From IMG/VR virus record IMGVR_UViG_3300011339_000925: 64,000 nucleotides of DNA, one strand, 5' to 3'. Below are positions 22,939 to 27,650 of this stretch, in pieces. Position numbers and translations under genes: made by a program. Below the pieces are notes generated by a model that was given only the letters and a program-made list of their open reading frames with translations, ran no database searches and was not told the DNA's origin. This DNA is from an uncultured virus (IMG/VR IMGVR_UViG_3300011339_000925) (lineage: Duplodnaviria; Heunggongvirae; Uroviricota; Caudoviricetes). Position 1 is the first letter of the stretch, and each line of letters starts with the position of its first letter.

Positions 22939-23160
22939 TTACTCATCATTTAATTCTTTTGCTGTTATTAAACTACCTAACAATATTGTAATAGCTATAA
23001 CTAAAATAGTACCTAATGTTATATAAGCATTTTCAATATCATATATAAATTGAAATATCATTCCTATTAATATTAAACTAATAAAAATATTAAACACTAT
23101 ATTGTTTAAGTTTATTTTTAAAGCTTTTAAATATTTTTTTAATGTTATTTTGGTTTGCAT
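22939..23160 (-). CDS. Small two-TM membrane protein
   Basis: Two hydrophobic stretches. Confidence 0.45.
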   Translation of the reverse strand: MQTKITLKKYLKALKINLNNIVFNIFISLILIGMIFQFIYDIENAYITLGTILVIAITILLGSLITAKELNDE

Positions 23161-23279
23161 TTCTTTTTACAGTTTTTACATTTTAAACAACCTTCTTCCA
23201 TTCTATGTTCTGTCAATTCTTTTTTACAGTTACACATTTGGTATACTGTTACATTGCTACCATATTTTATTTCTGACAT
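23145..23279 (-). CDS. Small Cys-rich protein (44 aa, not in ORF track)
   Basis: Manual translation MSEIKYG...MCNCKK...GCLKCKNCKKKCKPK*. Confidence 0.45.
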   Translation of the reverse strand: MSEIKYGSNVTVYQMCNCKKELTEHRMEEGCLKCKNCKKKCKPK

Positions 23280-23375
23280 ATTTTATTATTTATAAAAAAC
23301 AAACCATCTTTTGTTATGTACTTAATTCTAGTGTCTAATGTTTTTCCTATAATTACATTAGTAGCAGGTTGTTTG

Positions 23376-23567
23376 TTATTCCATTCCTTGTTTATTGTTA
23401 CATGTCTCATTTTTAAAATATTTATCTATTAATTTATTATTCTCTTCTATCCTTGCTTGTTTACAAGATTGAAAAAAATCATTTGCTTTATAACTAGTTA
23501 GTACAACAGCTTTTTCAGATAACCTAACTTTATAATAAGGGTTGATTAAATATCTTCTTCTATCCAT
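23376..23567 (-). CDS. Hypothetical protein, first gene of leftward arm
   Basis: Directly downstream of a TACATTTG box. Confidence 0.5.
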   Translation of the reverse strand: MDRRRYLINPYYKVRLSEKAVVLTSYKANDFFQSCKQARIEENNKLIDKYFKNETCNNKQGME

Positions 23568-23571
23568 ACCT

Positions 23572-23579
23572 CAAATGTA
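23572..23579 (-). promoter_or_regulatory. Bacteroidota-type -7 promoter box
   Basis: TACATTTG on the minus strand (TAnnTTTG). Confidence 0.5.
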
Positions 23580-23614
23580 GTAATAAATTAAATTAATAAA
23601 AAAATTTAGAAGAC

Positions 23615-23645
23615 TTGAATATATCGAAAAAAAAACGTACCTTTG
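23615..23645 (+). promoter_or_regulatory. Bacteroidota-type promoter (-33 TTG / -7 TACCTTTG)
   Basis: TTG at 23615, 20-nt spacer, TACCTTTG at 23638; divergent from the minus-strand box. Confidence 0.65.
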
Positions 23646-23760
23646 TGGAGAAAAGATAACAAAGCTACTACGGCATCCTTCAAAAGCTCGTCTTTGTAAG
23701 CAAACACTTTTTGGGGAAAGAGTATTTATAAAAGAGAAAGGTACCTTTTAGATTTTAAAA

Positions 23761-24000
23761 ATGAGTTTTAGTTTTTCAAATACAAAAGAAGAAACTTCTA
23801 AAACTGCTTTAGAACAATGGAAAAAAAATAAATTAGAAGTTGAAAAAGCTTTTTTTAATTACACTTCTAATAAAAAATTATCTCCTGAACAACAAGCACA
23901 CTTAGACTACATACAAAACTTTAAATCAGAATTAAAAGATGTTAAAGGATTTTTAATACAATGTAGTTACCATAAATTATTTAGACCCTACCTACCTTAA
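23761..24000 (+). CDS. Hypothetical protein
   Basis: Downstream of the promoter; N-terminus MSFSFSNTKEE. Confidence 0.55.
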   Translation: MSFSFSNTKEETSKTALEQWKKNKLEVEKAFFNYTSNKKLSPEQQAHLDYIQNFKSELKDVKGFLIQCSYHKLFRPYLP

Positions 24001-24265
24001 TTTTAATTAATACCCCCACCCCTTTATTATTTTTAATAGTGGGTATTAATTGGTGTATATAATGAGGGAGGGGGAGTACCCCCCATACTAGACCCGTTCA
24101 AAATTTTGACGTCGGGGTTCTCCGTGTCAGTCAAATAGCTTAGATGAACAAACGATTCTAGCTATTTAATTATGTGGGTGATGACCAACATCAGTTCAAG
24201 CAGTAGTACTGGAGCAGAAATCTTCGGTCAAAACGCGTTAGACTAACCAATAATGTCTAACAATA

Positions 24266-24374
24266 ACTCCTAAACAAGAGTATGAAACTGTTTAGTGTCC
24301 TAAGCAAGACAAAAAACTGCTTTAATTTTTAACTAACCGTGAGCAAGTTAGTTAGTTTATATTAAACTGTTCGC
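24266..24374 (+). ncRNA. Three tandem H-type pseudoknot repeats
   Basis: Copies at 24266-24295, 24296-24322, 24330-24374 with covarying stems. Confidence 0.7.
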
Positions 24375-24403
24375 TCGGTTTAAAATTTAATTTAAAGTTT
24401 AAA

Positions 24404-24844
24404 ATGGAAAGAGCAGATGCTATCCAAATTATCAAATCACGCCGTTCTGTATTAACAGAAGGTGCTTATGATTTGAAAGTGAATTCTGTCGTTGAATACG
24501 ACGGAAAGTTCATCATTAACTTGTCAGCAATGTCAAGTTATCATGTTGAACAAGCAGTTTCCCTAATCAAAAAGGGAGACTATCAAGGAGCTGTAAACAG
24601 TTCTTTATCATTTTCCGCTCGTCCTTCAGACTTTATTCCTTCAAAGGGAGAGTATGTGAAGGTTCAAGTTGAAAAACTCACCACTAAAAATGGTGTAACA
24701 GGTTTGTTTCCAGTAGCACTTTCTCCAATCAAATCTATCGCTTCTGGTAGAATTGACATTGAAAGTTTGTTGGAAGTTGAGGAAGAAGAAACTCAACAAA
24801 CAGAACAAACCGAAGGACCAAAACTTATTAAGAAAGGTAAGTAG
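24404..24844 (+). CDS. Probably highly expressed early protein (possibly OB-fold, acidic tail)
   Basis: Codon bias like the MCP; structured leader; own terminator. Confidence 0.75.
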   Translation: MERADAIQIIKSRRSVLTEGAYDLKVNSVVEYDGKFIINLSAMSSYHVEQAVSLIKKGDYQGAVNSSLSFSARPSDFIPSKGEYVKVQVEKLTTKNGVTGLFPVALSPIKSIASGRIDIESLLEVEEEETQQTEQTEGPKLIKKGK

Positions 24845-24853
24845 TTGGTAATC

Positions 24854-24897
24854 AGCCAATCCTCTCTCCACGGGAGGATTGGTTTTTTTATTTTTTT
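24854..24897 (+). terminator. Intrinsic terminator
   Basis: GCCAATCCTC...GAGGATTGGT followed by a T-run. Confidence 0.85.
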
Positions 24898-24990
24898 ATA
24901 AAAAGAAACAATACATTATAAATGTATTACACAACTTAACAAATTGTGTTATCATTTATTTTATGTTTTATTGTTTAGTTTTATTATACA

Positions 24991-25195
24991 TTATTAATGC
25001 ACCATAACTCACTTCCCAAGGGTGAGCAGTTGTAATATTAGAGATACTGACAATTTTAATTGTAAGTGACAAAAAGCTCTAATGCAAGCAGCGATGTTAT
25101 ATCAGAAATTATATAGTAATTGCAAGTACTATGTAATGGAGATATTTCACCTGTGTCGATCCTTGCAGATATTACAACTGAGTGCAGAGGGGTAA
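24991..25195 (+). ncRNA. Twister ribozyme (P1 type) with long P5 insertion
   Basis: P1 TTAT/GTAA; UAA cleavage loop; P2 TGCA/TGCA; P4 CTCAC/GTGAG; L4 TTCCCAAGG; 3' GAGGG; P5 12-bp perfect stem. Confidence 0.8.
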
Positions 25196-25240
25196 ATAAA
25201 TATTTATACACCACTTTTTTCAAAAATAAACAAAACAATT

Positions 25241-25546
25241 ATGAACGCAAAACAAGAAATTTCTTATCTTAAATTTGAGAATATCAAATGTGCCACTATC
25301 AAATATGTCACTATTAAAGAGATAGATACCATTTCTATTTCTTTAAAAGTAGGACATACTCAAGAAGAATTTAATGCATTTATGAATGCATTAGATTTTG
25401 ATTATGATAATGGGTATGGTAGTCAAGAACTTCATGGTATAATTTGGTTATCCAATGGTAATTGGATGACTAGATGGGAATATGATGGTAGTGAAGGATG
25501 GGAATATAACTCACTTCCTGAAATACCTGAAGAGTTAAAATCCTAA
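25241..25546 (+). CDS. Hypothetical phage protein
   Basis: YDNGYGSQELHGIIW...RWEYDGSEGW. Confidence 0.75.
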   Translation: MNAKQEISYLKFENIKCATIKYVTIKEIDTISISLKVGHTQEEFNAFMNALDFDYDNGYGSQELHGIIWLSNGNWMTRWEYDGSEGWEYNSLPEIPEELKS

Positions 25547-25598
25547 TAAAAAGGTACGTTAATAGCTGAAAATAACGGTTAAAGCTAATTTTTTTTCA

Positions 25599-25626
25599 AT
25601 ATCCTGAGTAAGATATAAAACTGCTC
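25599..25626 (+). ncRNA. Fourth copy of the pseudoknot motif
   Basis: ATATC-C-TGAGTAA-GATAT-AAAAC-TGCTC. Confidence 0.7.
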
Positions 25627-25905
25627 TTTAATTAAATTAACTATTAGTCCAAAGGATATTATGTTGAAGCATAGATTTGCATTAGACAGCTGACTGATTA
25701 AATTAATAGTTAATTTATTAAAAATAAAAAACTTAACTCTTTCCAAGATGTTGAGGACACCAGTTTCTTTGATGTTAAATTAAAAAGGTTGACCACAGAA
25801 AGATATAAAGTAGTGATTAAAAGCACTCGTCTAATCTGTTAAGAATACCTCATCAAAGTTTTAGGTGTAAAACACATTTATTCACAATTTTAAATTTCTA
25901 AAACA

Positions 25906-26112
25906 ATGAAAAACACAAAAATTATGCTCATTTGCATATCTAGCTTTATATTAAGCTGGATATTTTGTGGTGTTATTGGTTATTTATTAACTGATAATGT
26001 TACACTTAAATATTGTATATCTCACCTAGCTACAATTTATATTATGCTTATTATTGGGTGGATACCTACTTTTATTATAGGATATGATTTAACCAATACA
26101 ATTAAAAATTAA
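25906..26112 (+). CDS. Small membrane protein
   Basis: Two hydrophobic segments. Confidence 0.6.
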   Translation: MKNTKIMLICISSFILSWIFCGVIGYLLTDNVTLKYCISHLATIYIMLIIGWIPTFIIGYDLTNTIKN

Positions 26113-26331: not shown

Positions 26332-26793
26332 ATGGGATTAGACATGTATTTAAGCAAAAAATCTTTTATTGATAATGATTTTACTAAAAGAAAAATAGAA
26401 GGTCAACTAATAACTGACAATAAAACTATAAACATTAATTTTAATAATGTTAGTTGTATTACAGAAGATGTAGGATATTGGAGAAAAGCAAATCAAATAC
26501 ATAATTGGTTTGTAAAAAATATACAACATAATGTAGATAATTGTGGAGAATATTTTGTTAGCAAAGAACAATTAAAAACATTATTAAAAATTTGTAAACA
26601 AGTTCTAAAAAATAAAGAGCTAGCACCAAAATTATTTCCACATTCTCATGGATTTTTATTTAATGCAAGTTATGATGAAAATTATTTTAAAGATATCAAA
26701 CATACTATCAATATTTTAGAAAGTTTAGATTTAAAAAATAATAAAATAAATAGTACTATAAAAACAAGTTATTATTATTCATCATCTTGGTAA
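26332..26793 (+). CDS. Conserved phage protein (MGLDMYL / YWRKANQIHNWF family)
   Basis: Characteristic N-terminus, internal motif and C-terminal YYSSSW. Confidence 0.75.
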   Translation: MGLDMYLSKKSFIDNDFTKRKIEGQLITDNKTININFNNVSCITEDVGYWRKANQIHNWFVKNIQHNVDNCGEYFVSKEQLKTLLKICKQVLKNKELAPKLFPHSHGFLFNASYDENYFKDIKHTINILESLDLKNNKINSTIKTSYYYSSSW

Positions 26794-27650
26794 TTATGTT
26801 ACAAATTAAAGAAAGAAAATCAATGATGATTAAACCATCAGGTAGGTCTACAGATTTTATATCTCCTTCATTTATAATGGGTTGTGGATTTAATTGTTCT
26901 TATTGCTATTGTAAAAGACACAAAACTGAAGGTGTAGATATAGCAAATAATATTAATCAAATACTAACAGAAATAAATAATCATGCAGTATTTGCTGTAG
27001 TAGATAAACCTAATCAGACACATCCTAAATATATTACTTATGATATAGGTTGTAATTCAGATATGTCATTACATGCTAAACATTATGATTGGAAATATGT
27101 TTTTAATTTATTTAAAAATCATGATAGAGCAATGGGTTCTTTTGCTACTAAATATGTAAATACAGATTTTTTAAAATATAATCCAAACAATAAAATAAGA
27201 ATAAGATTTAGTTTAATGCCACAATCTTATGCTGATCAATTAGAACCAAAAACTAGTAGTATAATAGATAGAATAGAAGCAATAGATACATTTATTGACG
27301 CAGGTTATGATGTGCATATTAATTTTAGTCCTGTTATTATTACACAAGGTTGGTTAATTAAATACAAAGAATTGTTTGAGCTTGTAAATACACATGTTAA
27401 ACATAAAAATATTGTAAAAGCTGAAGTTATTTTCTTAACACATAATGAAAAAAAACATGAATACAATATTGCACATGGATTATTTGGTGAACATTTAATA
27501 TGGAGACCAGAATTACAAGAAAATAAAAAATCTCAATATGGTGGTAATAATATAAGATATAAGCATAATATTAAACATGCTTATATAAATCAATGGATTA
27601 AATTACATGATAGTATTATACCTTGGAATACAATAAGATATATATTTTAA
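26787..27650 (+). CDS. Spore photoproduct lyase-like radical SAM protein
   Basis: CGFNCSYCY (CxxxCxxC), FATK, RIRFSLMP, NFSPVI, YGGNNIRY. Confidence 0.8.
   Translation: MVIMLQIKERKSMMIKPSGRSTDFISPSFIMGCGFNCSYCYCKRHKTEGVDIANNINQILTEINNHAVFAVVDKPNQTHPKYITYDIGCNSDMSLHAKHYDWKYVFNLFKNHDRAMGSFATKYVNTDFLKYNPNNKIRIRFSLMPQSYADQLEPKTSSIIDRIEAIDTFIDAGYDVHINFSPVIITQGWLIKYKELFELVNTHVKHKNIVKAEVIFLTHNEKKHEYNIAHGLFGEHLIWRPELQENKKSQYGGNNIRYKHNIKHAYINQWIKLHDSIIPWNTIRYIF

Follow-up and report, generated by a model that had tools for sequence, protein, structure and literature searches.

A conserved 28-nt RNA pseudoknot family, arrayed in the leader of a crAss-like phage gene and commonly placed behind stop codons

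We analyzed a 64,000-nt stretch of DNA from an uncultured virus (IMG/VR record IMGVR_UViG_3300011339_000925), which is a crAss-like phage and is called the window below, and found that the H-type pseudoknots arrayed at 24266–24374, in front of the gene that starts at 24404, belong to a real, conserved and covarying pseudoknot family that is very large. The knot takes up about 28 nt, its placement is stereotyped, behind stop codons and before varied RNA features, and the family appears to be new to searchable catalogues. The first-pass annotation of this DNA had described three adjacent units of one architecture in this region; direct reading of the sequence confirmed three adjoining H-type units, and a fourth one was added in the next long intergenic region. 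With somewhat less than even confidence, and judging from sequence and position, we tentatively read the knot as a compact boundary element that would protect or insulate transcript segments. The units of the window (U1 to U4) are as follows.

24266–24295, plus strand: U1, with a 4-bp stem 1, C, a 6–7-bp stem 2, A and a 7-nt linker ending in AAAC (direct sequence reading); stem 1 24266–24269/24278–24281, C 24270, stem 2 24271–24276/24289–24294, A 24277, linker 24282–24288.
24296–24323, plus strand: U2, a canonical family member (sequence and model R1); stem 1 24296–24299/24308–24311, C 24300, stem 2 24302–24306/24318–24322, A 24307.
24329–24374, plus strand: U3, a long-stem variant with an 8–9-bp stem 1, a 13-nt linker and a 7-bp stem 2 (direct sequence reading); stem 1 24330–24337/24347–24354, C 24338, stem 2 24339–24345/24368–24374 with two G-U pairs, A 24346.
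25600–25627, plus strand: U4, the fourth unit, in the next long intergenic region (sequence and model R1, which matched 25594–25631).

Model R1, which was built from relatives of the knot and run over the whole window, matched U2 with 46.1 bits (E-value 3.4e-10) and U4 with 26.1 bits (E-value 6.7e-5). U1 has one extra linker base and was matched only in part (24266–24283, 15 bits), and U3 was missed because its stem and linker are longer; U3 retains the family core, that is, the C-G closing pair, the C, GCA-A-G and AAAC-UG, and its stem 2 is GUGAGCA/UGUUCGC. Stem 2 of U2 is limited to 5 bp because its sixth pair is U-U, and a U-rich run (24321–24330) follows directly after this unit. In U4, stem 2 reads UGAGUA/UGCUC against the canonical UAAGCA/UGCUU, which amounts to one compensated change (A-U to G-C) and one U-G wobble. 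The core CAAG-N(5–17)-AAACTG occurs 6 times in the 64 kb, compared with 2.1 expected occurrences, and three of the six fall within the 95-nt stretch of the array. Nested folding energies of the single units were not significant (z from −0.6 to −2.2), as given by folding programs that are unable to fold pseudoknots. The individual stems are thermodynamically weak, and support for the pseudoknot comes from covariation and not from energy. A generic scan of the window for knot-like pairings was swamped by A/T-rich chance matches. One knot-like pairing with an AAAC linker, a 5-bp stem 1 and a 6-bp stem 2 was noted at 27556–27582 (plus strand), inside the open reading frame (ORF) 26787–27650; the family core is absent from it, model R1 gave 8 bits (E-value 4.4), and it is probably a chance pairing.

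Across the family, the motif of about 28 nt runs in the order stem 1, an invariant C, UAAGCA, one unpaired base, the return strand of stem 1, a linker ending in AAAC, and UGCUUA. With the stem-closing C numbered as position 0, stem 1 has 3–6 bp of free sequence and is closed by C0-G9, and its second pair is A-U or U-A in all but 1% of 191 copies. The single loop base C1 crosses stem 2 and is C in 84 of the 86 copies found when it was searched free, and AAAC adjoins stem 2 and is kept in 83 of 84 when searched free, so both of these elements are as invariant as had been proposed from the window alone. The unpaired base before the return of stem 1 had been called an invariant A as well; it is A in all four window copies, but over the family this position 8 is U in 56, A in 46 and C in 8 of 110 copies and is never G. 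The spacing from G9 to AAAC is exactly five bases in 191 of 194 copies. Stem 2, of 5–6 bp, is near-fixed and pairs U2–A7 with U19–A24 (UAAGCA/UGCUUA); five of its pairs are robust and the sixth is formed in 35 of 59 copies (UA 27, UG 8). No conserved sequence was found outside the 28 nt.

Both stems had been said to change while keeping their pairing, and this holds in columns that were left free in the searches, which were the columns tested for covariation. For the two-stem structure in 59 sequences, 90.3% of the cells were paired, compared with 81.8% in shuffles, and the covariation score was 0.259 compared with 0.093, a value reached by 0 of 500 shuffles in a control that ignores kinship and on samples that were drawn with patterns and include related phages. 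Slid controls of the same sequences were only 27–41% paired. The stem-1 pair 8–22 was GC in 29 of these sequences, AU in 13, UA in 12, CG in 3, GU in 1 and unpaired in 1, and the stem-2 pair G5:C21 was GC in 47, AU in 10, GU in 2 and never unpaired. Moreover, when G was fixed at position 3, its free partner at position 23 was C in 117, U in 12 and A in 2 of 131 copies, and when position 3 was A, the partner was U in 48 of 59. Other compact pseudoknots suggest by analogy that stem 1 holds the A-rich linker in its groove and that tertiary contacts are formed by the fixed bases.

A pattern derived from U1 and U2 found at least 117 loci in IMG/VR, and further patterns, each of which freed another part of the motif, found at least 109, 132, 120, 120 and 116 loci. 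Among the matches listed for the first scan, 63 of 78 distinct ones had a stem 1 of at least 3 bp and a stem 2 of at least 4 bp; the remaining 15 looked like chance matches in coding sequence, and one of these recurred 25 times. One scan of contigs from one genome per species yielded 53 places; the named records among them include Bacteroidota (Capnocytophaga, Chryseobacterium, Alistipes), Firmicutes (Clostridium, Lactobacillus, Ligilactobacillus), Patescibacteria, Alpha- and Gammaproteobacteria, Campylobacterota and three archaeal bins. In the cultured Roseobacter podophages CRP-6 and CRP-13 the knot lies between the ribonucleotide reductase and glutaredoxin genes, and a 312-kb Saccharibacteria (Patescibacteria) contig carries one copy after a gene of cellular type, for an ABC-2 transporter. 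Crassvirales, which had been suggested as the group to be searched, thus proved too narrow a space: relatives occur in these Roseobacter podophages, in Lactobacillus prophages and in Patescibacteria contigs, and the crAss-like phage phi14:2 gave no model match better than an E-value of 0.36. Tight arrays were seen only in the window and in one 91.7-kb IMG/VR contig (L067); the family is otherwise almost always single-copy. If the family is what it seems, it is a portable part of 28 nt that is common to phage genomes of very different hosts and marks the ends of coding regions.

The family has at least several hundred copies and is small enough to have escaped the motif catalogues that we checked. 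Rfam 15, which had been named as the check for a characterized family, gave no match: the whole window had none at gathering thresholds, and the array region at E-values up to 10 had only a chance snoRNA. On the loci of 12 relatives, Rfam 15 recognized tRNA, tmRNA, hammerhead and DUF2800 RNA beside the knot and nothing on the knot itself. Exact motif strings returned only primer matches in the literature, and a word search found no description of the motif; an unnamed listing is possible among the 10,006 unnamed viral RNA candidates of a 2023 catalogue (PMC10690425), the supplements of which are not searchable.

The genomic context was examined in 307 distinct copies, among the matches listed, that have a stem 1 of at least 3 bp and paired test columns. 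In 242 of them an ORF of at least 50 codons on the same strand ends within 60 nt upstream, and in 193 a stop codon ends 0–16 nt before C0, with a peak at 8–9 nt. The onset of this distribution is sharp: the gap is 5 nt or less in 5 copies, 7 nt in 5, 8 nt in 48, 9 nt in 52, 10 nt in 22, 11 nt in 23 and 12 nt in 16, followed by a thin tail. Counted to the first base of stem 1, the gap is mostly 4–8 nt with a mode of 5–6 nt (4 nt in 18 copies, 5 nt in 43, 6 nt in 42), and the spacer is A-rich and G-poor. This closeness is more than an effect of genome compaction, since in 83 of the stop-hugging copies no ORF starts in the next 60 nt. A clear example of gene-by-gene punctuation is a 6.3-kb IMG/VR contig (L667) with the order knot, ORF, knot, ORF, knot, in which the three knots are ∼316 nt apart and the ORFs encode 83 and 86 aa.

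What follows the knot is varied. A tRNA begins 1–11 nt after it in 32 of the 307 copies, and 23 of these 32 tRNAs are tRNA-Asp; the 23 loci (a subset of L296–L420) share a homologous cysteine-rich ORF upstream, so they represent one phage lineage and not 23 events, and no queuosine connection is read from them. In this subset the synteny is the cysteine-rich ORF, the knot and, 2–11 nt later, tRNA-Asp. A hammerhead core lies within 45 nt downstream in seven copies by text pattern, of which L216 is doubtful; the one at L071 was matched by Rfam Hammerhead_3 at 34 bits, below the gathering score of 48.5. A U-run stands at the 3′ edge of the knot in 48 copies (15.6%), compared with 1.9% of random windows in the same loci. 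On the minus strand of L067 (1310–1979), four knots come after a tmRNA gene carried by the phage (Rfam 99.9 bits); three of them are exact 38-nt tandem repeats and the fourth is an additional copy. At L059 (minus strand, 1339–1530) the knot abuts the 5′ end of a DUF2800 RNA (RF02960, 145 bits). Twelve loci (L012, L051, L068, L086, L128, L132, L146, L156, L163, L171, L190 and L192) have an ORF of ∼60 aa, the knot, a short U-run and a cluster of DnaA-box-like TTATCCACA/TTTTCCACA sequences; this subgroup may be the replication-origin region of small-genome bacteria, or of their plasmids, filed as viral.

The proteins encoded around the knot (132 upstream and 78 downstream neighbours) have no common family or function. 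Ribonucleotide reductase is found upstream in 6 of 132 cases, beside Hsp20, helicase, minor head protein, integrase and antirepressor genes; downstream there are four scaffold, three major head protein and three single-strand-binding protein (SSB) genes among 78, together with primase-helicase, thioredoxin and tape measure genes. Genes for abundant proteins downstream of knots are notable but few.

The window array is atypical for the family, with three tandem copies, a position in a 5′ leader and no ORF upstream. It lies in an 837-nt divergent gap that separates a minus-strand block of genes, with PHROG matches to major head protein, portal and large terminase, from a plus-strand block which begins at 24404 and holds polymerase, helicase and primase genes. 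The features next to the array are listed here.

24237–24261, plus strand: 7-bp hairpin directly upstream of U1 (folding).
24375–24403, plus strand: A/U-rich spacer between the array and the start codon (sequence and folding).
24404–24844, plus strand: gene 24404, encoding 146 aa with an acidic C-terminal tail (ORF).
24854–24893, plus strand: intrinsic-terminator-like hairpin and T-run that closes the 24404 transcription unit, with a 13-pair stem including 6 G-C pairs.

The array had been placed in the leader of gene 24404 at about 30 nt from the ATG, in good agreement with the 29 nt measured here. The spacer has no pairs in the centroid fold and some weak ones, over part of its length, in the minimum-energy fold. 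The 24404 protein belongs to no PHROG, Pfam or PADLOC family; its Atlas structure neighbours are DUF669 and OB-fold clusters with TM scores of 0.42–0.46, a weak lead that the product may be an OB-fold or DUF669-type SSB. A scan for sigma-70 promoters stayed at background level (12 found, compared with 12.8 expected), and ARAGORN found no tRNA in the window. Upstream of the array, directly after ORF 23761–24000, the plus strand at 24005–24090 carries an 11-bp inverted repeat (24005–24015/24041–24051) and then a G5/C5 hairpin at about 24071–24084, which may be terminator or leader structures. The next intergenic region holds at 24994–25192 (plus strand) a structured element made of a closing stem, a conserved hairpin and a long stem, with a fold z-score of −3.1 and no Rfam match. 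The interior of its long stem (∼130 nt) is swapped for other sequence in many metagenome contigs, the summed contig depth of its two conserved flanks is 130–295 compared with ∼10 for the phage, and its 5′ part also follows the knot in L214. At 25241–25546 (plus strand) a 101-aa ORF that matches phrog_3972 is the sole part of 23000–26000 with DNA similarity to cultured phages, namely 69–75% identity over ∼120–160 nt to genes annotated as hypothetical in T5-like phages of Escherichia and Salmonella.

Relatives of the window phage vary at the array. A contig of run X9 joins 24164 to 24291 and is thus without both the 24237–24261 hairpin and U1, which indicates that the knot copy number differs between strains of this phage; in a second relative 24109–24861 is replaced altogether. 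At the contig end of one relative, stem 2 is fully compensated (UGAGCA/UGCUCA). Relatives sought through the 24404 protein gave only the identical contig L001, and in the nearest record (G001) the array region is absent and there was no good match to model R1. The contigs of the sole RNA run (X20) leave 23904–24827, and with it the array, uncovered. For another crAss-like phage, phi14:2, a bioRxiv paper (10.1101/2020.03.07.982082) reports that two long early intergenic regions are transcribed above most genes, and by analogy transcription of the long intergenic regions is plausible in the window phage.

As to what the knot does, a boundary element that protects or insulates transcript segments is the function that we favour, with the tentativeness given above. 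The exonuclease-blocking element that the first-pass annotation had listed as its third option comes near to this reading. In 2005, Takyar, Hickerson and Noller reportedly located the start of mRNA unwinding by the ribosome at about +11 of the P-site codon, or 5 nt past the A-site codon. Given this limit and the 5–6-nt gap, the knot would start just where a terminating ribosome stops unwinding, that is, behind the stop codon at the shortest distance that leaves it folded under that ribosome, and it would stand in front of the next feature, be it a tRNA, a hammerhead cut site, a U-run or the next ribosome-binding site. Whether the next feature is a tRNA with its 5′ end cut by RNase P, a cleaving hammerhead or a U-run, the resulting RNA 3′ end would lie no more than ∼10 nt from the knot, and a tail of ∼10 nt is too short for 3′ exonucleases to grip. 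The knot could therefore serve as a compact roadblock to exonucleases nibbling from a nearby processed or terminated end and as an insulator that lets neighbouring RNA elements fold independently, and the adjoining cistron would thereby be stabilized; where a ribosome-binding site follows, it would offer a fixed, structure-neutral start for the next cistron. The window array probably strengthens such a barrier on the 5′ flank of the 24404 message, the gene being seen in this model as monocistronic, SSB-like and closed by its own terminator, or else ends an upstream leader RNA at the U-run after U2. The fixed stop distance leads to the testable idea that the ribosome footprint sets where RNA structure can begin after a gene. 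A compact stabilizer or insulator that is independent of the host, if this is what the knot is, would be useful in synthetic operons, and the family would help to annotate blank phage intergenic regions.

Several points weigh against the boundary function. None of the four window copies comes after an ORF stop and no ORF ends just upstream of U1, so the window itself belongs to the minority context of the family. The next ORF starts within 60 nt downstream in 125 of 307 copies, with no known cut site there, and nothing nameable lies downstream in 139 of 307. The patterns used to draw the family samples hold part of the motif fixed, and related phages are among the matches; the counts given here are of copies and not of independent events. 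The stems of single knots are weak, as described above. Moreover, a plain hairpin is enough to block an exonuclease, and the near-fixed sequence of stem 2 and the loop across phyla is left unexplained; it may hint at a specific partner or at catalysis. This near-fixed sequence, needless for a simple block, is the main reason to keep the rival explanations alive. A wider claim, which we consider possible with more doubt than conviction, is that the knot represents a new RNA class: a universal, sequence-fixed, triple-stranded knot of 28 nt at the leading edge of the terminating ribosome, shared by the phages of most bacterial phyla and by some ultra-small bacteria and having a conserved partner or chemistry. 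Such a class might be a block to a universal nuclease or to the ribosome, as a prokaryotic counterpart of the exonuclease-resistant viral RNAs (xrRNAs), or else a ribozyme or aptamer smaller than all other natural ones, and each of these would be more than another stabilizing stem.

Direct action of the knot on the terminating ribosome at the mRNA entry site, by which termination, recycling or re-initiation would be tuned or sliding of the ribosome blocked, is unlikely. The sharp onset of the stop-to-knot spacing and its mode of 5–6 nt to stem 1 speak for it, as this spacing is the geometry of frameshift and readthrough stimulators, and so do the 1-nt loop 1 and the A-rich linker, which resemble luteovirus frameshift knots, and the 75 of 307 copies that both hug a stop and have an ORF start within 60 nt. 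The spacer of 5–9 nt that is expected of a frameshift or readthrough element is thus present, but neither a slippery heptamer nor a conserved extension or overlapping frame accompanies the knot: the last two codons show no recurrent slippery pattern (the top hexamer occurs in 5 copies), the stop-to-knot distances have no 3-nt periodicity, all three stop codons are used (TAA 153, TAG 28, TGA 12), and the motif's own UAA closes one alternative frame. Furthermore, about one-fifth of the copies, all four window copies included, have no ORF end within 60 nt upstream.

To the same degree unlikely is a binding site, either a small-ligand aptamer or a protein operator, which in the window would be an autoregulatory leader of the T4 gene 32 kind for the SSB-like 24404 product. 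Near-invariant loop bases and a near-invariant stem 2 beside a free stem 1 are what aptamers and protein sites typically show, the knot shares its overall fold class with the preQ1-I aptamer, and in the window a 29-nt A/U-rich spacer leads to a gene with an acidic tail and weak OB-fold or DUF669 leads; an SSB gene also follows the knot in 3 of 78 other loci. In contrast, no Rfam riboswitch matched, even at an E-value of 10 on 131 nt, the single-base junction loop leaves little room for a pocket, the neighbouring genes are without a common function, and the main position is after a stop codon and not in a 5′ UTR with an expression platform. Nor, as far as we looked, is there a protein common to phages of so many phyla. 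Of the interpretation given in the first-pass annotation, the tandem, covarying H-type pseudoknot in the 24404 leader stands, but an operator specific for the 24404 protein is unlikely, as the motif occurs beside hundreds of unrelated genes in many phyla and next to SSB genes in just those 3 of 78 cases.

More unlikely again is an RNA-processing signal that would punctuate phage operons in the manner of hammerheads and tRNA-like elements, either as a tiny ribozyme that cleaves itself or as a substrate for a universal enzyme such as RNase P. The intergenic niche and the spread across phyla are like those of phage hammerheads, the knot adjoins tRNAs and hammerheads, its core is conserved with stem 1 free, and the knots of L667 stand between small genes. 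A second cut would, however, be redundant at 1–11 nt from tRNA 5′ ends or directly before hammerhead cut sites, and the knot has no CCA-like tail and no Rfam ribozyme family match. With 28 nt and two short stems it would be smaller than any natural self-cleaving class known to us. Should ligand binding or self-cutting turn out to be true, the knot would be the smallest natural example of its kind.

We hold it improbable that the knot provides the structure for an intrinsic terminator or attenuator of an unusual kind. The excess of U-runs at its 3′ edge over control windows, the U-rich run after U2 and the position right after ORFs fit such a role; yet 84% of the copies have no U-run, many lie 1–40 nt before a tRNA or a next gene that must be co-transcribed, and the helix beside the U-run ends in A-U pairs. 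Very improbable, finally, is a role in anti-defence, with the array as a decoy mimicking a type III antitoxin (ToxI-like) or some other RNA of the host: the tandem layout in the window and in L067 and the pseudoknot units with an A-rich segment recall one, but no ToxI-type family of Rfam matched, no toxin-like gene lies nearby, the window units have diverged and differ in length, members of the family are nearly always single copies within operons, and the same sequence is found across phyla, whereas the known antitoxin RNAs are system-specific.

Comparison with known systems places the knot beside several of them and inside none. The likeness to ToxI that had been drawn for the array is rejected as mimicry: ToxI, CptI and TenpI consist of near-identical direct repeats of 34–45 nt, whereas the window units have diverged and measure 30, 28 and 46 nt, a repeat search of the array gave only 12-nt shared cores, and PADLOC found no ToxN/AbiQ-type or other defence gene among nine neighbouring proteins. 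Luteovirus-type frameshift knots, for example that of beet western yellows virus, are likewise compact H-type structures of ∼28 nt with a very short, C-containing loop 1 and an A-rich loop 2 that ends beside stem 2, many of their bases are conserved for tertiary reasons, and they lie 5–8 nt downstream of the A-site codon. Here, in contrast, a stop codon takes that place without a slippery heptamer or an overlapping frame, the hosts are bacteria and phages, and the stem lengths are inverted, with a short stem 1 and a 6-bp stem 2. The preQ1-I aptamer (RF00522) is an H-type pseudoknot of the smallest class with an A-rich 3′ linker, and tandem copies of it are known; its junction loop has several bases including C where the knot has one, and the knot differs in its 6-bp stem 2 and in lying mostly after stop codons. 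RF00522 did not match the array region at an E-value of 10, and no queuosine or preQ1 pathway gene was found among the 78 downstream genes.

The T4 gene 32 leader, a translational operator and mRNA stabilizer, shares with the window a pseudoknot, an A/U-rich leader and, if the weak lead on the 24404 product holds, a gene of single-strand-binding type, and by this layout the array may have a locus-specific autoregulatory use; unlike that leader, which is specific to T-even phages, the knot family is not tied to SSB genes, and its distribution shows that the knot was not made for the 24404 protein. Hammerheads and mini tRNA-like elements share its intergenic niche in co-directional phage operons and stand directly beside it in several loci, but the knot matches no ribozyme or tRNA model: the hammerhead, pistol, twister, hatchet and HDV-like class models in Rfam gave no match on it, and P2 and P3, both of which the pistol ribozyme needs according to its description (PMC4604425), together with a GU cut site beyond its hairpin-loop pseudoknot, are absent stems in the knot. 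The tobamovirus upstream pseudoknot domain and the flavivirus xrRNAs are tandem structures that halt exonucleases behind coding regions, and in this they are like the knot as we read it; an xrRNA needs a ring-forming three-way junction together with its pseudoknot, whereas the knot is a two-stem structure with no junction. The RNase III-site hairpins of T7 and the puf operon and repetitive extragenic palindromic (REP) hairpins also stand directly behind coding regions and halt exonucleases there, and they are plain hairpins without conserved sequence, whereas the knot keeps the same sequence across phyla.

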